This document shows, piece by piece, positions 42,285-50,748 of a DNA stretch of 64,000 nucleotides. This stretch comes from Gemmatimonas sp. (GTDB lineage Bacteria > Gemmatimonadota > Gemmatimonadetes > Gemmatimonadales > Gemmatimonadaceae). The translations under genes were made by a program, and so were the position numbers. The DNA lies in NCBI GenBank assembly GCA_031414535.1, contig JANNVQ010000030.1, forward strand, positions 144,936 to 208,935, written 5' to 3'. The notes under the pieces were generated by a model. It made no database searches. It saw only the letters and a list, made by a program, of their open reading frames with translations, and was not told the DNA's origin. Position 1 is the first letter of the stretch. Every line of letters begins with the position of its first letter.

Positions 42285-45200
42285 ATGGCGCGCAAACAGG
42301 TGAAGCCGGATCGAGTCCGTGTGCGAGTGCTCGGGGCCACCGAGCTCCAGATTGGCTCGCGCCGCGTGGGAATGAATACGGAGGCGCTATTTGCGCTTGC
42401 GCTGTACCTGACGACGCGCGCCGGGGAGCGAATCGCGCGGGAGCAGGTGTTGGAGATTTTCTGGACCGACGGTGCGGAGGAGAGCCGCCGCCATGCGATG
42501 CGGCAGATGATGTATCGACTGCGGCAGAAGGGTTTGGAGCTTGATGAGGATGGCGAGTTTCTCCGGTTGGACCCGGCTCATATTGAGAGCGATTTGCGGG
42601 ATTGCCTGCAGGCGGATTGGCCGGAGCGAGCGGGTGCTGCTGCGGTGGAGGCAGCCCTAGCTTTGGGTCCCACGTTTAGCGCTCGCCTTGCAGCACCGTT
42701 TTTGGATTGGTTTGATGGGGTGCGGGCGGAGGTGGCGGCGCAGCATCGGAAGGCGGCTGCCAAGCAGATCACGCTTGCCCGGCGCGAGGGGCGCTGGTCG
42801 GAGTTGGAGCGCTGGGCGCGTTCCGTCCTGCAATCAGACCCGCTGAATGAGGAGGCGACGTTAGCGCGGGCTGAGAGCGCAGCGATGTCGGGGTCGAAGG
42901 TCGCGGCGTTGGAGATACTGGATACTTATTTGGCGGAGATTGGGCAGGTGGCGCCGGAGTTGGGGAAGCCGGCGGTGGTGCTGCGGAAGCGGATTGCGGA
43001 GAAGAGGGCGGATTGGACTCAACGAGGGCCACGCGAAGTCCGGTTGATTGGGCGGTCCGACCTTATGCGGAAGCTGAATGCGTTCGCGGACTCCGTAACG
43101 GCCGGAGACTCTAAACACTTAGTCCTCGAGGGTCCACCCGGTAGCGGAAAGTCGCGGTTGCTCGCAGAGGCCGGTGAATATTCCCAGCTCAGAGGACTAA
43201 GAGTGCTGGGTGTTCGAGCAGAGAAAGTCATGGAGGAACATCCTCTGGCGTTTTGCAGAGAAATAGCAGCGCAGCTTGTCAGAGTACCGGGAGCTGCTGG
43301 AGTTTCCCCAGCGACAATGAAGGTGGCATCTAGCCTGGCCGAAGAAGCGGCACAATTTCGGACGGATGCAATACGCCCGACACCACAACTATCGGTATCG
43401 AGTATTGCGGGAGCATTATCCGGCCTGCTATCTGCTATTGGGTCAGAGCAGCGTTTCGTGCTGGTTTTGGACGATCTTCAATGGGCAGACGACTTATCTC
43501 TGAAGATCCTAGGCGAACTCATTCGCGCTGCCAGCCACAGCCGCGTCGGGATAGTAGCGGGCACCAGACCCCATTCAAGCGGATTGCAGCTCAACTCCGT
43601 AGCGGCGGCGTTCGACCAACTGCATCGAGTCAATCCACTCGTAGACGAGTACGCAACAGATCTTGCGAACGAGACTGCGAAGTCGCACGGCCGAGTGCTA
43701 GACGCCGCCGCGCTGGCGGCAATACTGCGCACTGCAGGAGGTAACCCTCTCTTTGTGAGAGAACTAACAATTGCTCGAAGCGCATGGCCCCATCGCACAT
43801 CGCTACCAGATTCGCTATCTCAGATTGTAGAGGATCGGATTCGAACTCTCGACGCTCGGGAGCAGCGGTTGCTGAGGATTACCGCGCTACTCGGAGACGT
43901 CGCAGCGCTTTCGAGAGTACGCGCGACAGCAGCACTCTCACACTCAGAGCTACAGCACTCGCTCGAGAGACTTGAGGCAGAGTCGATGATTCGCATGTCT
44001 GGCGAGCGCACGTTAAGCGTCCACGACTGCTGGTCTGAGGTGTTGCTCCAGCAGACCCCAGCCACGTCTCTCGCCGCCTTGGCCCTCGAGTGCGCCGAAC
44101 GGCTCATTATTGACTCCGCCGCACGATCACACGCCGTCCAGCGAAGAACCGGCCACCTACTCCGACTCGCCGGCGAGAACGATCGAGCTCTCGAATACTT
44201 CTTGGCAAGCACCGATTCTCTCCATGCAATCGGCTTGCCTCGTGAGGCGAGGGATTCGATGGCCTCGTACTCTGAGCTAGCCAACCATCCGACGGCCCAG
44301 GCACGCCTGAAGTATCGATCCGCTCGAAGTCTGTCTACCCTTGGAAATCCAGAGTCGGCGATTGCAATCGTGGAAGAGCTTCGGAGACATGGTTGGCTTC
44401 GCCAGAATGCGCTCTGGCAGGAGCACCTCGACTCCATTCTCATTCTCGCGGAAGCGTACATCAGAACCGAGAATGCGGATCATGCCCCAACAGACGAAGC
44501 ACTCACACTCGCTTTTCACCCCAACTTGGGCGCAGACGACCAACAGAAGGCATGCCTACTAGGAGTACGAATCGCGAGCAATCGAGCCGACGCGCGGCTG
44601 ATGAGGGACTTCGCTGAGCGCTCCAAGGAACTCGACGGGACTGGAGCTAGGAGCTATGCCAGCTGGATGACGGCCCTCGTTCACGCAACTGAGTGCGGAT
44701 CTGCAGCAGACATTCTCGATATTATTGACAGCGCCTCCGTAATCGACCGGAGCGACCTCACCGTGCATCAGACCTACCTAATGCACCGATTCGCTTGCCA
44801 AGCCCTCAGAGTCGCGAGGAAGTTTCACAGGTCCTTGGAACACGGCACCGCAGCGCATGACCTAGCAATCGAACACGGGCTATACCATCAGGCACGAGTC
44901 GGGGCGGAGCTGTTGGCCCACGTGTGCCTAGACTATGAAGAGATCACCGCTGCTCGCGAATGGATTTCCCGAAGCGAGCACTTGTCGACTGAGGCCGCGG
45001 TGGCAGCCACAACAAGATCTCACGACCACGTCAAGGATCGCCTAAGTGTACAGGAGGGGAAATTCGACGAGGTGTGTGGGCGAATTCTCGCACGGCTACC
45101 CTCGTCGAGAGTCGCAGGAACTCCTACGGCACGGCTAGGCGAGCTGTCACTGGCGGCGCTGTGCCTCTCACAACTTGGACGTCACGAAGAGGCGGAACTC

Positions 45201-45431
45201 GTGATTGCTGAAACGCTCGAGGCCGTCAGTCCAATCCTTGGTCAATATTCCAGTAACTTCGCAGTTGAACTCACCGCGCGTTCGCTTCGACTTATTGGCA
45301 ATGGCAAGCGAGCTGATCAGCTCTTGCGGGACCACATGCATTCGAGGATTGCGAAGAATCCCCCGACGCCGCCCCCGTTCTTCATGCAGCTCATGTCGGT
45401 GGAAAACAGCCTATCGCTGAGCGGCAACTAG
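42285..45431 (+). CDS. SARP/BTAD-domain regulator with AAA (STAND-like) ATPase and helical-repeat C-terminus
   Basis: N-terminal wHTH (VRVLG...REQVLEIFW), BTAD (DPLNEEA), Walker A GPPGSGKS, LDDLQWAD, GGNPLF. Confidence 0.85.
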   Translation: MARKQVKPDRVRVRVLGATELQIGSRRVGMNTEALFALALYLTTRAGERIAREQVLEIFWTDGAEESRRHAMRQMMYRLRQKGLELDEDGEFLRLDPAHIESDLRDCLQADWPERAGAAAVEAALALGPTFSARLAAPFLDWFDGVRAEVAAQHRKAAAKQITLARREGRWSELERWARSVLQSDPLNEEATLARAESAAMSGSKVAALEILDTYLAEIGQVAPELGKPAVVLRKRIAEKRADWTQRGPREVRLIGRSDLMRKLNAFADSVTAGDSKHLVLEGPPGSGKSRLLAEAGEYSQLRGLRVLGVRAEKVMEEHPLAFCREIAAQLVRVPGAAGVSPATMKVASSLAEEAAQFRTDAIRPTPQLSVSSIAGALSGLLSAIGSEQRFVLVLDDLQWADDLSLKILGELIRAASHSRVGIVAGTRPHSSGLQLNSVAAAFDQLHRVNPLVDEYATDLANETAKSHGRVLDAAALAAILRTAGGNPLFVRELTIARSAWPHRTSLPDSLSQIVEDRIRTLDAREQRLLRITALLGDVAALSRVRATAALSHSELQHSLERLEAESMIRMSGERTLSVHDCWSEVLLQQTPATSLAALALECAERLIIDSAARSHAVQRRTGHLLRLAGENDRALEYFLASTDSLHAIGLPREARDSMASYSELANHPTAQARLKYRSARSLSTLGNPESAIAIVEELRRHGWLRQNALWQEHLDSILILAEAYIRTENADHAPTDEALTLAFHPNLGADDQQKACLLGVRIASNRADARLMRDFAERSKELDGTGARSYASWMTALVHATECGSAADILDIIDSASVIDRSDLTVHQTYLMHRFACQALRVARKFHRSLEHGTAAHDLAIEHGLYHQARVGAELLAHVCLDYEEITAAREWISRSEHLSTEAAVAATTRSHDHVKDRLSVQEGKFDEVCGRILARLPSSRVAGTPTARLGELSLAALCLSQLGRHEEAELVIAETLEAVSPILGQYSSNFAVELTARSLRLIGNGKRADQLLRDHMHSRIAKNPPTPPPFFMQLMSVENSLSLSGN

Positions 45432-46754
45432 GTATTCACCCGTGTTGCCAATCGCGGGAAACGATTCAGCAACATCACTGGCAGGAAACTCCCGCTGGGC
45501 GTCAGCGACTGCTCGCTCCAGAGCGCTCCACCCTGAAGCCGAAATCAACTTGGAACATACCTTTGGGTCGAACTGGCGCCCGCTCTCGCGCTCTAATTCG
45601 ACTCGGACGTCGTCGAGTGAAAGCCCGGCGCGATAAGGGCGTGACGTCGTCATCGCGTCAATCGTATCAGCAAGAGCGATAATTCGCGCCGACAGCGGTA
45701 TGCTCTCACCGCTGAGCTGGTCTGGGTAGCCTGTTCCGTTCCAAGCCTCGTGATGAGCGCGGACCGAAGAGACCAAATCCGAAAAATTCGAGACCTTCGC
45801 GACTAGCTCAGCACTTCGGATTGGATGGAGCTTCATTCTTCCGAACTCCTCGTCCGAAAGACGACCCGGCTTTCGCAGAATCGACGCGAACTCCTCGTGA
45901 ATTTTGCCGACGTCGTGCAGTAACGCGGCAATCTCGACCCGCTCGACCTGACTTACCGTAAGTCCCGCCGTCCGCGCCACTTCCCGTGCATACCGCGCGA
46001 CTCGCTGTGAGTGTCCGGACGTGTAGGGGTCACGCGCCTCGATCGATGCTACCATAAGCTGCAAGAGTTCTTCGTTGATTTTCTCTAACGCAAACACCAT
46101 TCGGTACAACTGCCGGATGCCGAGCATCGGAAGCGCTGCCAGGGCGGTCCACATTGGCCCCTTCGACACGTACATCAGCGCGAGAAGCACGATGAGGGGC
46201 AAGGAGAGTGCGTCGTACACGCCGGAACCCTTAATGCTCTTCGCCCAGTGCCTCAGCGTGTTGGCGTCAGAGGACGCCGCCACAACCGTGCTTACGGCGA
46301 GCTTATTGAGTGCAAAATAGGTCGCGCAGAGCCCGACGAAAGGAAGAATTTGAGAGACTTCGAGGGTCGCAGACTTTCCACCTAGTCCGAGGTACACAAA
46401 CAATCCCACGGCGACAGCAAAAGTGTGCTGAGCCACATTGAACGCAATCTTTAGACGGGCTCTGCGGAGCATTAGTTCGCCCGCGAGTGTGCTCAAAGCG
46501 ACTGAAATTAATGCGGCTCCGTTGGGGGCAACCAACGCGACGCTTAAGTAGGGCAAGAATACAATCGAGCCTGTTGTGGCCTTGCCCACGGGATACGAGA
46601 GGACGGCGAACAACACGCCCATTCCAGTAAAGAACAGTGCCGATTGCCAGTCTGTATTGGTCGGCGATGGCGCAAGGGCAAACACGGCCGCCACGGATAT
46701 TATGCATCCGGCGGCGACACCCTCTACGACGCGCTCGACTCGGCTCGCTGACAT
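45411..46754 (-). CDS. HD-GYP cyclic dinucleotide phosphodiesterase with multi-TM sensor domain
   Basis: About 6-7 TM segments, then EARDPYTSGHSQRV, LHDVGK, HHEAWNGTGYP, RPYR. Confidence 0.92.
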   Translation of the reverse strand: MSASRVERVVEGVAAGCIISVAAVFALAPSPTNTDWQSALFFTGMGVLFAVLSYPVGKATTGSIVFLPYLSVALVAPNGAALISVALSTLAGELMLRRARLKIAFNVAQHTFAVAVGLFVYLGLGGKSATLEVSQILPFVGLCATYFALNKLAVSTVVAASSDANTLRHWAKSIKGSGVYDALSLPLIVLLALMYVSKGPMWTALAALPMLGIRQLYRMVFALEKINEELLQLMVASIEARDPYTSGHSQRVARYAREVARTAGLTVSQVERVEIAALLHDVGKIHEEFASILRKPGRLSDEEFGRMKLHPIRSAELVAKVSNFSDLVSSVRAHHEAWNGTGYPDQLSGESIPLSARIIALADTIDAMTTSRPYRAGLSLDDVRVELERESGRQFDPKVCSKLISASGWSALERAVADAQREFPASDVAESFPAIGNTGEYLVAAQR

Positions 46755-46804
46755 GTTGAGTTGTGCTCTTGGTAGAACCGGAGGACCCCTCGTCCCCAGC
46801 TGGA

Positions 46805-46876
46805 CTAGTTCCAGCTATGTGAATCGCCCATCACAAACGCCGCCATTGCAGCAATGATTGACGTGATAATAGACAT
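46805..46876 (-). CDS. 23-aa peptide MSIITSIIAAMAAFVMGDSHSWN, putative signalling peptide precursor, absent from the ORF track
   Basis: AAAGGGAGGTGAT Shine-Dalgarno 5 nt before the ATG; hydrophobic core and polar Trp-containing tail; 50 nt upstream of the HD-GYP gene on the same strand. Confidence 0.72.
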   Translation of the reverse strand: MSIITSIIAAMAAFVMGDSHSWN

Positions 46877-46881
46877 CGAGA

Positions 46882-47020
46882 ATCACCTCCCTTTCGGTGA
46901 GATCACTGAATCCGAAGATCCAGCGCCCAGCCTAGGTCGGCTCCGCTCGTCGCACCCTTACGGTGCACCGCTTGTGTCCTCTCCGCTCAGAGAGAACGAG
47001 GGGTACCTCTTCGTGTCCTG
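46882..47020 (-). ncRNA. Candidate structured 5' leader RNA
   Basis: Consecutive hairpins including CTGGATC-TTCG-GATTCAG, GCACC-GTAAG-GGTGC and a GAAA-capped stem that includes the SD. Confidence 0.45.
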
Positions 47021-47075
47021 TACGTACTGCACTTCCTAAAACAACTACACTTGCCCGTTCACCAACTCCATCACC

Positions 47076-47888
47076 TCAACGCGAACCGCGACGATCCTCC
47101 ACCACCGGCATATCGCCCGATGGCGTCATCGTCGCCATCCACCTGTTCGTCGCATCCAATACGGCCAGCACCGCCGCCGTCTCCGCACTATCGCGAATCT
47201 CGGCGCTCCCGGTGAGCATCACCTGCTCACGACCAGCCCGAGCCATCACCGCCACAAACACAAAGTCGCGCTCAAACGCCGTCATCACCTTGGCGCCCTC
47301 GAGGGAAAAGATTCCCCCGGTCGGCCCAGCAAGACTCAGCGCCATCAAGGCCGCACGCGCGCTCACGTCCACACGACTGCGGTCGCTCTGTACGGTCTCC
47401 TCAGCCTCGCCGGCGTAATGATCTGAACCAACGCGAAGCGTCACCTTGCAGGTCACACCACGCGCACGCGAGCCGCGGACTTCCACGTCCTCGAAGTACA
47501 CAGGGCGGCCTACAGCGGGAGACTTGGCAGATACTGGCTCTGGGATGGCGGCCTGCTCGCCCGTAGTGGGACGGCGCGTGGTGGCAGCCACCGAAATCTT
47601 CCGGTGGTCAACCTTCAAACCGAGCTGCGCCATAAGCGCGCTCTCAATATTTCGTACCACGGCCTTTGCCGGCGTGTCGCCAGTCACCAGGACGTGAATG
47701 GTATCTATAGATCCGTTCTCCGCCGCCGAAATCCGCGCGGACACCACATCCTTCAGCGAGCCAATCAGCTCCTCCGCGCGCTGCAACGGCAGTACGCTTC
47801 CGGCTATCGCCGAGCTGTTCTCGCTCGGATGGGGCAGCTGTGGGGACACGGAGTTCTGGGGCGGGACGGTGGGAGTCAGCCTGAACAA
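47076..47888 (-). CDS. Conserved-looking hypothetical cytoplasmic protein (two domains)
   Basis: Long ORF with normal codon usage; IHVLV...KAVVRNIESALMA..G..VDHRKISVA and AVLAVLDATNR segments; start uncertain. Confidence 0.75.
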   Translation of the reverse strand: MFRLTPTVPPQNSVSPQLPHPSENSSAIAGSVLPLQRAEELIGSLKDVVSARISAAENGSIDTIHVLVTGDTPAKAVVRNIESALMAQLGLKVDHRKISVAATTRRPTTGEQAAIPEPVSAKSPAVGRPVYFEDVEVRGSRARGVTCKVTLRVGSDHYAGEAEETVQSDRSRVDVSARAALMALSLAGPTGGIFSLEGAKVMTAFERDFVFVAVMARAGREQVMLTGSAEIRDSAETAAVLAVLDATNRWMATMTPSGDMPVVEDRRGSR

Positions 47889-47972
47889 TGCGACCTAGGT
47901 CACCGGCCGCAATGCCATTAGTCTGTCGAATATCTAAGCAGTTCGGTAGGGGGACCGTCAAAAACTCCCGGT

Positions 47973-49568
47973 TTATCCGTCAAACTGTTCAGGAACTTGA
48001 TACTCCTTGAGCTTTCGGTAGAGCGTTCGCTCACCAATATCAAGCACTTCTGCAGCCTTTCGACGATTTCCTCTGCTATCGCGCAACGCGGCGACAATCG
48101 CCGCCCGTTCAATATCGGCCATCGTCATTCCGGACCTGACGTTGAGACTGGAAGCGACCTGAGCGCTGTCGGGAGGCTCGATGCCGGTGCCGAGCGAGCC
48201 GATGGCAAGCGCAGCTGGAACTGGTCCCCCACCAGCCATCACTCCCGCGCTACCGCCAGCAAGCCCGGTGGCCACCGCCGCCCACTGATCGCGCTCCGCG
48301 CGAACCTCGTCCACTCGCCGACGCAACTCTTCGAGCTGCAACTTCACCTCGACCAAGCTTCGGACGATGAACTCCAGTTCCCTGCCCTCCGCACGGCTCT
48401 CCTCACGGAGGATGGCTCCCATGGGCACAGGAAACAGTCGGTCCGAGCCGCCCTGGCGAATCGCGGTTGGGATGTCCTGCACGCCGATTTCCCGGCCCGT
48501 CGCCAAGACCACCATCGATTCAATCAGGTTGCGTAGCTCGCGTACGTTGCCCGGCCAGCCGTAGTTCACCAAGGCGTTCATGGCGTCGGACGAAATACCG
48601 TGGAACTCACGGTTGTGCTCCTCGGCGAATTCCTGCACAAAGCGTCGCACCAGCAAGGGGATGTCCTCGCGACGCTCGCGCAGCGGCGGCAGGTAGATGC
48701 GGAGCACGTTCAGTCGATAGAACAGGTCCGAGCGGAATTCGCCGGCCTGCACCGATTCGCGCAAGGGACGGTTGGTGGCCGCCATTACACGCACATCCAC
48801 GGGCACGGTTTGCGTGCCGCCAACACGGGTGACTTCGCGCTCCTCGAGCACGCGTAGCAGCTTGACCTGCGTGCTCGATGGGATCTCGCCAATCTCGTCG
48901 AGAAAAAGCGTTCCGCCTGAAGCGAGCTCAAAGCGGCCAATGCGACGCTCCGCGGCACCGGTGAAGGAGCCCTTTTCGTGACCAAAGAGTTCGCTCTCCA
49001 GCAGCGTCTCTGGTAGCGCGCCCACATTCACCGCAATAAACGGCTTGCTGCGGCGCGGACTCAACTTGTGGATGGCACGAGCTACCAACTCCTTACCCGT
49101 GCCGCTCTCGCCCTCGATGAGGACGGTGCTGGACACGGGCGCCATCTGGCCTATAGCAACAAGTACTTGGCGCACTGCCTCGCTGTCGCCCCAGAGGCCG
49201 GTCTCGCGCGCAATCCGCGCCCGCTCGATGAGTTCCTCGACGCTCTGCCGCAGGGCCTCGGGATTCACGGGCTTGGAGATCACATCGGAGAAGCCCACGA
49301 GGCGCAGCTTCTGCTCGAGTTGCGGATCGCCCACGTCGGCCAAGCCAATTACCGCAGCGCCACCCCACATCTGGTCACGCGCAATCGCGAGGGTCTGGGG
49401 ATCCAACAGATTGCCCGTGAAGACAATCACCGCTGGCCGCGCTTTCCGCACCTCGCTCGGCAGGTCATCAAGTGGCGAGACCACAGCCGTCTTGATGCCA
49501 TCCGCTTCCAGGAGGGCGTTGAGGCGAACGGCGGGCTCGACATCAGCTAGGGTAATCAGGACGCTCAT
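47973..49568 (-). CDS. Sigma-54-dependent Fis-family enhancer-binding protein with atypical receiver domain
   Basis: [31 protein letters not shown]-terminal HTH. Confidence 0.93.
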
Positions 49569-49584
49569 AGGAGACTCTGAAAAT

Positions 49585-49637
49585 GGACGGATGACGGATG
49601 ACGGATGCCGTCAGCTTCCGTCATCCGTCATCCGTCC
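49585..49637. repeat. Heptamer palindromic repeat with perfect 21-bp arms
   Basis: GGACGGATGACGGATGACGGA ... TCCGTCATCCGTCATCCGTCC. Confidence 0.85.
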
Positions 49638-49641
49638 GGCT

Positions 49642-50748
49642 CTATCGCTTTACCGTTCCCTGCTTCCAAAACGGAAACGGCACGATCGTTCCTGTAACTC
49701 GCTTCCCGCGAATTTCCACCTCAATCGTGTTGCCTTCCTTGGCGTGCGCCGTGGGCACATACGCGGTACCGAGTCCGCAGCCGACGCTGGGGCTCATGAT
49801 GCCGCTCATCACCAAGCCACTCGGCGCGCCGTTCACAAACACTGGATATCCGTGACGTGGAATGGCCTTCTCTTCGAACGTGAAGCCCACGAGCTTGCGC
49901 GTGATGCCGGCGGCCTTCTGCGCTTCGAGTGCGGCGCGGCCCACGAAGTCGCCCTTCTTCATCTTCACGAGCCAGCCGAGTCCGGCTTCGAGCGGCGTGT
50001 ACGTGTCGTCAATGTCGTTGCCGTAGAGCGCCATGCCCATCTCGAGGCGCAGGGAGTCGCGGCAGCCGAGTCCGGTTGGCGTGATGCGGCCGGTGGCCAT
50101 TAAGGCGGCCCAGAGCTTTTCGGAATCCTTGGCGCTGTGGTAAAGCTCGAAGCCGTCTTCGCCGGTGTAGCCCGTGCGCGAGAGCGTCATGGGGATGCCG
50201 GCCACGCTGGTCTCGGTGAACCAGTAGTACTTGATGGCATCGAGGTCAGCAGGCGTGAGCGCCTTGAGGATCTCCTGCGCCGCGGGACCCTGCACGGCGA
50301 GCAGGCCGATGTCATCGCTGATGTCGGTGAGCGTGCAATCAAAGCGACCCAAATATTGCGAGATGTGCGCGAAGTCTTTGTCCTTGTTCGAGCCGTTCAC
50401 CACCATCATGAGATGGTCGGCGTAGCGGTACACCAGGCAGTCGTCCACAAACGTGCCCTGCGGCGTGAGGATGCCCGAGTAATGCACCTGGCCCACGCTG
50501 AGGGCAGCCACGTCGTTGCTGGTCACGTAGGAGACGAAGTCGATGGCCTGGGGGCCGCGCACGATGAACTCGCCCATGTGCGACACATCAAACACGCCGC
50601 AGCTCTTGCGCACCGCATTGTGCTCGGCGGTAATCCCCTGGGGATACTGGATGGGCATCTCGAATCCGGCGAAGGGCACCATCTTGGCGCCGGCGGCGAG
50701 GTGCAGGGCGTGAAACGGGGTGCGCTTGAGTGCTGAGCTATCGGTCAT
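49642..50748 (-). CDS. gcvT: Glycine cleavage system aminomethyltransferase T
   Basis: [31 protein letters not shown]. Confidence 0.96.

Follow-up and report, generated by a model that had tools for sequence, protein, structure and literature searches.

The region described here lies in a stretch of 64,000 nucleotides from a Gemmatimonas sp. genome (NCBI GenBank assembly GCA_031414535.1, contig JANNVQ010000030.1, positions 144,936 to 208,935 of the forward strand), which is called the window below and by whose own positions all features are numbered. On the minus strand of the window, a gene of 23 codons, referred to as the micro-gene, stands between a structured leader RNA and a gene encoding a MASE9 membrane domain fused to an HD-GYP domain. 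The micro-gene is conserved and unannotated, and the leader is a conserved RNA whose structure is supported by covariation. The features of the locus are presented in Table 1. The same order of elements recurs in related loci, namely gcvT, a sigma-54 activator gene, a gene for a protein of 270 amino acids (aa), the leader, the micro-gene, the HD-GYP gene and a convergent regulator gene.

Table 1. Positions in the window of the micro-gene, the leader RNA elements and the neighbouring genes (SD, Shine-Dalgarno sequence; HTH, helix-turn-helix; MFE, minimum free energy; nt, nucleotides).
Feature	Position	Strand	Description
Micro-gene	46805..46876	-	23 codons plus stop; product MSIITSIIAAMAAFVMGDSHSWN; unannotated
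SD of the micro-gene	46882..46890	-	GGAGGTGAT; 5 nt ahead of the ATG
MASE9 and HD-GYP protein gene (447 aa)	45411..46754	-	Intact HD-GYP domain behind an N-terminal MASE9 membrane domain
Leader RNA	46874..47023	-	Match of covariance model R1; hairpins P1-P3 and anti-SD helix
P0, 5' strand	46997..47009	-	GAGGT-ACCCCTCG; C-rich; 5' end of the leader
P0, 3' strand	46781..46792	-	CGAGGGGT-CCTC; G-rich; past the stop of the micro-gene, ahead of the HD-GYP start
Hairpin P1	46976..46997	-	GTTCTCTC / GAGAGGAC, AGC loop; two-sided changes in 8 of 9 pairs; in the MFE fold
Hairpin P2	46951..46967	-	two-sided changes in 5 of 5 pairs; in the MFE fold
Hairpin P3	46906..46923	-	CTGGATC-TTCG-GATTCAG; two-sided changes in 6 of 6 pairs (28-35 sequences each); in the MFE fold
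GAGCGGAGCC block	46939..46948	-	One of several (G/T)AGCG repeats
Candidate anti-SD	46899..46903	-	ATCTC; may pair with GAGGT of the SD; 82% of cells pair
270-aa protein gene	47076..47888	-	Upstream of the leader; family seen here in Gemmatimonadota only
Sigma-54 activator gene	47973..49568	-	AAA+ plus Fis-type HTH
Convergent regulator gene (1048 aa)	42285..45431	+	Strong AAA_16; overlaps the HD-GYP gene by 21 nt

An earlier note on this DNA, made from its letters alone, had drawn attention to a minus-strand open reading frame (ORF) for a peptide of 23 residues with a Trp near its end, and this ORF is present as described. The distance of 50 nt that it had given between the stop of the micro-gene and the ATG of the HD-GYP gene (46754) was confirmed from the coordinates. 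As is looked for in a leader ORF, a small ORF on the same strand, with a ribosome site of its own, thus lies directly upstream of the HD-GYP gene. The note had also singled out the ribosome-binding site as very strong; the SD is indeed present, and is better regarded as an invariant part of the structured leader RNA. Its columns were invariant or near-invariant in the leader alignment (28 sequences), and the core ahead of each located micro-gene was G(G/A)(G/A)G(G/A)(T/C)GA, with the exception of one locus with AGGAGAC.

The protein encoded downstream of the micro-gene is, by its sequence, a canonical HD-GYP protein of the cyclic di-GMP (c-di-GMP) phosphodiesterase type. MASE9 (PF20972; cut-off 24.3 bits) was matched over residues 60-197 with 35.3 bits, and a six-frame search gave 36.2 bits, again above the cut-off and as the sole MASE9 match in this genome. 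The matches to HD_5 (PF13487; 113.4 bits against 27.2, E 1.2e-32) and to PF01966 (77.3 against 22) were far above their cut-offs, and the HD dyad (residue 280), HH (334) and GYP (342) were all intact. The earlier note had described an intact HD-GYP domain fused to about 6-7 transmembrane helices; the domain is intact, and by a simple hydropathy scan approximately 7 hydrophobic segments were counted within residues 1-215. For MASE9, Galperin and Chou (bioRxiv 10.1101/2021.11.05.467447) give about 8 such segments, of which two are short.

Recurrence and coding signature of the micro-gene

The occurrence of the micro-gene was assessed in a pool of 141 loci, in which some genomes were reached twice and of which 118 were usable. 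A micro-gene of 15-30 codons was present in 117 of these 118 Gemmatimonadota loci, with a homologue of the 270-aa gene on one side and, wherever the contig extended far enough, the HD-GYP gene on the other. The 117 loci encoded 99 distinct peptides of 15-30 residues, with Trp as the last residue in 26 and as the next-to-last in 68 (together 94 of the 99). The expectation of the earlier note that small ORFs with a Trp near the end would be found upstream of homologous HD-GYP genes was thus borne out. In three peptides of one genus-level group the Trp was 2-5 residues from the end, in L038, a locus that looks degraded, it was 15 residues away, and the peptide of L019 was the only one without Trp. 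An Asp or Glu was located at most seven residues ahead of the last Trp in 81 of the 99 peptides, and the peptide sequences were strongly different between genera.

The pool was made up of several sets of loci. The first set comprised 30 loci with full-length HD-GYP relatives, 28 of which have upstream DNA, and in 27 of these 28 an ORF of 23-28 codons was found after a GG(A/G)GGTGA-type site. The exception is L030, in which the micro-gene frame continues to 50 codons and the match was limited to the HD-GYP half. The leader RNA model led to 27 further loci, including three false positives and three that end straight after the leader; the other 21 reach the HD-GYP gene, and the micro-gene was present in every one of them. 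Among 80 named related loci, all from Gemmatimonadota and mainly from Gemmatimonadaceae or Gemmatimonas metagenome-assembled genomes, the micro-gene was found in each locus with enough downstream DNA, with a TTG start in three. Five genomes from other families or classes of the phylum were also tried, and all five had the leader, the micro-gene (16-27 codons, with the endings TWG, RW, GW, VW and CW) and the HD-GYP gene.

Three loci departed from this arrangement. L030 and L038 appear degraded; in L038 (1644-3072), the micro-gene extends over 30 codons, and the HD-GYP coding sequence is broken up between two frames. In L113 (4935-5036 and downstream), the 270-aa gene, the leader and a micro-gene of 17 codons were found, and no HD-GYP gene was detected in the 4 kb downstream; this may be a rearranged or mis-assembled copy.

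The ratio of nonsynonymous to synonymous polymorphism (pN/pS) and the variation by codon position were determined for 17 genus-level copies, which are all 23 codons long and among which each of the three stop codons occurs. The pN/pS was 0.49 in frame and higher, at 0.83 and 1.66, in the two alternative frames. Column entropies for codon positions 1 to 3 were 0.80, 0.37 and 0.96, so that the second position varied least and the third most. Both halves of the peptide were constrained, with a pN/pS of 0.56 for codons 2-15 and of 0.37 for codons 16-23. Given this in-frame constraint and the recurrence of the ORF in 117 of 118 loci, the arrangement is far beyond chance.

The composition of the peptides was examined over 97 sequences. 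The grand average of hydropathy (GRAVY) was +1.05 in frame, compared with -0.06 and -0.05 off frame; Trp made up 6.7% of the residues, and Lys, Arg, Glu and Pro were rare. The micro-gene had a GC content of 52.9%, against 61.7% for the loci, and ATG, GTG and TTG were all used as start codons. Of the hydrophobic, signal-like segment proposed in the earlier note, the hydrophobicity was therefore upheld, but the N-terminus was not signal-peptide-like. Composition and substitution pattern together fit selection on a hydrophobic coding product, and they point to translation of the micro-gene.

The peptide had no match in any of the family libraries scanned. Four of the 99 peptides were looked up as exact sequences in a collection of approximately 15 billion predicted proteins, and all four were absent. 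This absence is explained by the practice of gene callers, which usually skip ORFs under about 30 codons.

The leader RNA and the long-range helix P0

The covariance model of the leader, R1, is biased towards the genus of the window. In the 80 matches aligned to R1, an alignment that is fitted to the model and hence favours structure, pairing was found in 83.5% of the cells, whereas shuffles gave 64.6% and slid partners 38-46%; changes on both sides were observed in 20 of the 25 pairs. The same hairpins were given by the minimum-free-energy fold of the window (z -3.58). R1 had one true match in the genome of the window, and at E <= 0.01 it matched 31 of the 151 genomes of the order, once in each. 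No Rfam 15 match to the leader was obtained, either in positions 44000-50000 of the window at E <= 1 or in eight related loci at E <= 5.

Two groups of weaker R1 matches were discarded. An apparent second copy of the leader in the genome of the window (E 0.96) lies inside an ORF of 242 aa and was taken as a chance match. The weak matches in L059-L061 are not accompanied by the 270-aa gene, the micro-gene or the HD-GYP gene and are false positives.

The leader is rich in short repeats. AGCG occurred 3.8 times per leader, compared with 1.2 times in dinucleotide shuffles, and GAGCGG 2.0 times, compared with 0.14. The first eight bases of the GAGCGGAGCC block, AGCGGAGC and a near-invariant G, were constant across the 28 aligned sequences. 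In the leaders of the window and of L002-L176, 3-5 (G/T)AGCG(G) repeats were observed, often as GAGCGGAGCG doublets with a period of 5 nt. These repeats resemble the triplet-repeat RNA sites of ring-shaped binding proteins such as TRAP.

A long-range helix, P0, joins the 5' end of the leader to the stretch beyond the micro-gene. Its two strands are approximately 200 nt apart and enclose the three hairpins, the SD and the micro-gene itself, and it is present in the minimum-free-energy fold of the window. A run of at least four G begins a median of 9 nt past the stop codon (interquartile range 7-14) in 82 of 97 loci, with a distance that ranges from 1 to 31 nt, and the C-run is located about 122 nt ahead of the micro-gene start in 83 of 97. 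P0 thus also provides the second feature looked for in a leader ORF, a helix that a ribosome on the ORF could open and that covers the region before the downstream start.

Several comparisons support P0. Four loci (L001, L002, L003 and L005) have a T in the C-run with a matching A in the G-run, and more distant loci (e.g. L106, L107, L173, L174, L175 and L176) pair in P0 despite quite different sequences. Cognate strands gave -41.5 kcal/mol, compared with -35.0 kcal/mol for non-cognate strands, and none of 2000 permutations was as low. When 30 full-length regions were aligned by MAFFT, without fitting to the model, RNAalifold picked the core of the C-run and G-run pairing, and a P0 of 16 pairs was 73.7% paired, against 66.2% in shuffled alignments, a value that none of 500 shuffles reached.

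Two further observations were made around the 3' strand of P0. The end of the micro-gene and the bases past its stop (46785-46820, minus strand) form a perfect local hairpin of 7 bp, AGCTGGA-ACTAG-TCCAGCT, which is specific to the window and was not kept in the other loci inspected. The spacer from P0 to the HD-GYP ATG seemed longer in the window than in some close relatives, e.g. L016.

Neighbouring genes

The hypothetical gene that the earlier note had placed upstream on the same strand is the 270-aa gene, whose product had no Pfam (including LeuA_dimer) or NCBIfam match. At E <= 1e-8, its family had matches in 227 of 301 Gemmatimonadota genomes; the tally takes in four (G112, G125, G264 and G214) that are flagged as unpublished, and no other result depends on them. 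The relatives of the protein in the Atlas were hypothetical proteins only, with Gemmatimonadota as the commonest phylum. In the scan that gave the related loci, a relative was encoded in 585 of the 600 stretches among the matches listed. Within the family, a VRNIESAL...DHRK stretch and an LDATNRW motif near the end were seen to be invariant.

The AlphaFold2 model of the 270-aa protein (mean pLDDT, predicted local distance difference test, 76.6) showed two domains. Residues 128-252 were modelled with the fold of the LeuA/citramalate-synthase regulatory domain, a tandem beta-beta-beta-alpha arrangement. Foldseek matched 3fig (E 2.5e-5) and 3f6g (TM-score 0.63), and the comparison by VIA with 3f6g_B gave a Z of 9.8 and a root-mean-square deviation of 2.9 over 110 residues. 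The regulatory domain of LeuA and citramalate synthase binds leucine or isoleucine; the predicted likeness of the 270-aa protein to it is one of fold only. Residues 30-104 were modelled as a common small alpha-beta-beta-alpha-beta domain. The identification of this domain as a PrgK/EscJ domain, a cation-transporter C-terminal domain or an acyl-CoA-ligase C-terminal subdomain was rejected, as the Z values of 6.6-9.1 reflect a common alpha/beta arrangement only; apart from the top match, PrpE (Z 9.1), none departed by more than about 1 from the range of 7-8 that is typical of best-Z noise. An assignment as a double-stranded RNA-binding domain was rejected for its poor TM-scores.

The sigma-54 activator gene was found upstream in 74 of the 80 related loci, directly before the 270-aa gene. 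In the first 110 or so residues of the activator, neither a Pfam match nor a recognisable receiver domain was found. A scan for sigma-54 promoter sites (TGG-N9-TGC) from the activator gene to the micro-gene, the coordinates of which are unreliable, gave no consistent site. On the other side of the locus, the earlier note had described a convergent BTAD/AAA regulator with an overlap of 21 nt; convergence, overlap and the AAA_16 domain all held, but BTAD had no match at E <= 0.01. The regulator also gave matches below the cut-offs to Trans_reg_C (winged-helix) and to tetratricopeptide repeats (TPR). Relatives of the regulator lay convergently downstream in 27 of the 80 loci, many loci being too short to reach this position.

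In L019, L021 and L024, from one other family of the order, an extra small gene was observed between the 270-aa gene and the leader. Its products end in ...ARQMAA or ...ERRMAA and appear receiver-like by eye.

Proposed leader-ORF control and a possible partner of MASE9

The interpretation that we prefer, and to which we give about an even chance, is that the micro-gene is a leader ORF gating the synthesis of the MASE9/HD-GYP protein, and that its product is probably also a membrane partner or ligand of MASE9. In the folded transcript, the C-rich 5' end of the leader would pair with the G-rich stretch past the micro-gene stop to form P0. On its way through the micro-gene to the stop codon, a ribosome would unzip P0 and free the region before the HD-GYP start, and on termination it would be left 15-66 nt from that start (these gap figures are rough). 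HD-GYP synthesis would then be set by the access of ribosomes to the SD of the micro-gene, which may itself be masked. The peptide would act as a small membrane partner or as an intramembrane ligand of MASE9, made in cis with the enzyme; a ligand of MASE9 that binds within the membrane is proposed in a passage of bioRxiv 10.1101/2021.11.05.467447.

The invariant SD in a structured leader and the helix just past the stop argue for a role in cis first, and from them we infer that translation of the micro-gene unmasks the HD-GYP start region. Gating alone fails to explain the conserved hydrophobic helix and terminal Trp of the peptide. As its hydrophobic, Trp-ended character is kept across the phylum, the product probably has a use of its own, most likely on MASE9.

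Several observations weigh against this interpretation. On the side of the peptide, none of the 99 sequences has the basic N-terminus typical of a signal or an anchor, and many of them, at 15-19 aa, are too short for a membrane span. On the side of the RNA, the start codon of the HD-GYP gene in the window lies outside P0, the ATG being 27 nt past the end of the helix. P0 on the unfitted alignment was just moderately above its controls, and a partner slid by -1 scored nearly equally, because the C- and G-runs can slip. The anti-SD helix is weakly supported, with changes that are nearly all one-sided because the SD does not vary, and the counts of two-sided changes in P1-P3 are subject to the bias of the fitted alignment.

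Part of the same evidence would be accounted for by a leader peptide acting purely in cis, for which translation alone matters and the terminal Trp sets the dwell time of the ribosome, the peptide being functionless once released. Leader peptides that act in cis include TnaC, the erm leaders and the anti-TRAP leader with its Trp codons. Here, P0 could be kept open by slow termination after Trp, or by a ribosome stalled at the only UGG when charged tRNA-Trp runs short. The ORF is well placed for this between the structured leader and the main gene; the 3' strand of P0, at its median of 9 nt past the stop, is within reach of a ribosome on the last codons; the Trp at or next to the stop is the most conserved feature of the peptides; and a peptide of 15-24 residues would be wholly inside the exit tunnel at termination. 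The Salmonella mgtQ ORF, as described in excerpts from PMC8092293, is another leader that acts in cis. However, a role in cis alone leaves unexplained both the N-terminal hydrophobicity, with the accompanying shift in GC content, and the constraint on the N-terminal half. Moreover, the distance from Trp to stop is not fixed, the stop codons vary, and the stop is anywhere from 1 to 31 nt from the G-run. We consider this alternative possible and doubtful. It might also be supposed that the ORF is untranslated and is a by-product of the conservation of the RNA that surrounds it, which would agree with its position inside a structured element and with the absence of the four exact peptides from the predicted proteins. 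This is scarcely credible, as a frame of 15-30 codons stays open while the nucleotides diverge, with third positions varying most and second positions least, strong hydrophobicity is confined to this frame, and an invariant SD stands at a fixed distance before ATG, GTG or TTG.

The remaining alternatives give the peptide another destination. It could be a diffusible pheromone, exported as a precursor, perhaps trimmed to a C-terminal D-x-x-x-W, and sensed from outside by MASE9, so that cell density would be coupled to c-di-GMP hydrolysis. The small hydrophobic precursors of Gram-positive bacteria (SHP, ComS and the enterococcal inhibitor peptides) have 15-30 aa, are hydrophobic and carry an acidic residue few positions before an aromatic C-terminus, and the peptides described here are similar in the acidic residue ahead of their last Trp. 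Their strong divergence between genera and the adjacency of their gene to that of a membrane sensor also suit a pheromone. Against this, no exporter, peptidase or maturase was seen among the genes looked for in the conserved neighbourhood of the 80 loci (gcvT, activator, 270-aa gene and regulator), in agreement with the earlier note, which had recognised no AgrB- or ComQ-like maturase. In addition, the N-terminus is not that of a signal peptide, there is one copy per genome, and the close link that P0 makes with the receptor gene is more in keeping with a partner made in cis than with a shared public signal; a pheromone is thus decidedly unlikely. A different target is very improbable, whether the TPR part of the convergent regulator, in the manner of RRNPP proteins, or the HD domain itself, with the peptide as its substrate as in RiPPs, peptides that are made by ribosomes and modified after translation. 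The regulator, with its TPR-like matches, is indeed downstream in about a third of the loci, but these matches are below the cut-offs, the RNA structure ties the micro-gene to the HD-GYP gene and not to the regulator, and even in L019, L021 and L024, in spite of the inserted gene, the micro-gene is still beside the HD-GYP gene. The modification of a precursor peptide by an atypical HD-domain enzyme is described in excerpts from PMC12186529. The RiPP-type modification was rejected here, since the HD domain is a canonical HD-GYP domain (HD_5 at E 1.2e-32, with GYP) and not the HD_4/DUF6817 type that appears in those excerpts.

A further proposal extends the preferred interpretation in another direction. 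The Trp-ended peptide would be the natural intramembrane ligand or subunit of MASE9, its synthesis would be controlled by the leader RNA, and the 270-aa protein, with its fold like that of the small-molecule-binding LeuA regulatory domain, would read the (G/T)AGCG repeats of the leader in a TRAP-like, metabolite-dependent manner. We regard this combination as unlikely, and the reading of the repeats by the 270-aa protein is a speculation.

Leader-ORF gating with a probable use of the peptide is thus retained as the preferred interpretation. The role on MASE9 that the earlier note had given to the peptide stays plausible. The analogy with Agr, ComX and SHP quorum sensing is less likely, because the RNA features point to a function in cis, and it was the least supported part of that interpretation. 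The system is best classed as a case of leader-ORF control, combined with a micro-protein that is probably a partner of the MASE9/HD-GYP enzyme.

Several known systems share features with this locus. Leader ORFs that control a masked downstream start include those of ermC/ermB and cat/cmlA, as well as secM-secA, mifM-yidC2 and tnaC. As in these, a short ORF is found ahead of the gene, with an RNA structure at its end and a conserved C-terminal feature near the stop; here, in contrast, no arrest sequence, ligand or antibiotic is known, the position of the Trp is looser and the whole peptide is hydrophobic. Small membrane proteins that modulate larger ones include MgrB and SafA, which act on PhoQ, as well as AcrZ and KdpF, the last being in one operon with its partner. 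The likeness is that of a hydrophobic micro-protein proposed to act on a polytopic membrane protein, whereas here the many peptides of 15-19 aa are below a membrane span and the putative partner is a MASE9 sensor fused to a phosphodiesterase.

Peptide quorum sensing, as in AgrD/AgrC, ComX/ComP, SHP/Rgg and ComS/ComR, is similar in the placing of a tiny precursor gene beside a sensor and, for SHP and ComS, in the hydrophobic character, the acidic residue and the aromatic C-terminal part. It differs in that the receptor here would be MASE9/HD-GYP and neither a histidine kinase nor an RRNPP/Rgg TPR regulator, and in that the host belongs to Gemmatimonadota and is not a Firmicute. Among the neighbours checked, moreover, neither an exporter nor a maturase like AgrB or ComQ was found. 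The c-di-GMP-I and c-di-GMP-II riboswitches likewise have a structured 5' leader, with masking of the ribosome site (a candidate feature here), ahead of a gene for a c-di-GMP enzyme; the present leader differs in having no Rfam match, in its (G/T)AGCG repeats and in its coding micro-gene. A further parallel is mgtQ, located between mgtC and mgtB in Salmonella, whose translation releases the sequestered ribosome site of mgtB according to excerpts from PMC8092293. In both cases a very small ORF stands just upstream of a gene for a membrane protein, and the inhibitory stem over the downstream ribosome site of mgtB would have its counterpart in P0. As described in those excerpts, mgtQ has 8 codons, with acidic codons that destabilise the ribosome, compared with 15-30 codons and a hydrophobic, Trp-ended peptide here; the masking helix of the present locus is long-range and encloses a leader of several hairpins, and the unmasking is a proposed step.

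No description of the micro-gene or of the leader RNA was found in the literature searched, and the micro-gene is invisible to standard annotation. MASE-type domains stand at the head of many c-di-GMP enzymes, and the signals to which they respond are not known. Across Gemmatimonadota, a micro-gene and a leader RNA are attached to one such enzyme. The start codon of the micro-gene, its terminal Trp and the two strands of P0 offer experimental handles on the switching of MASE9/HD-GYP, and cultured relatives are available in Gemmatimonas aurantiaca and G. phototrophica. If the peptide is indeed a ligand, it would be the first for any MASE9 domain, and would provide a direct link from a peptide to c-di-GMP across the phylum.

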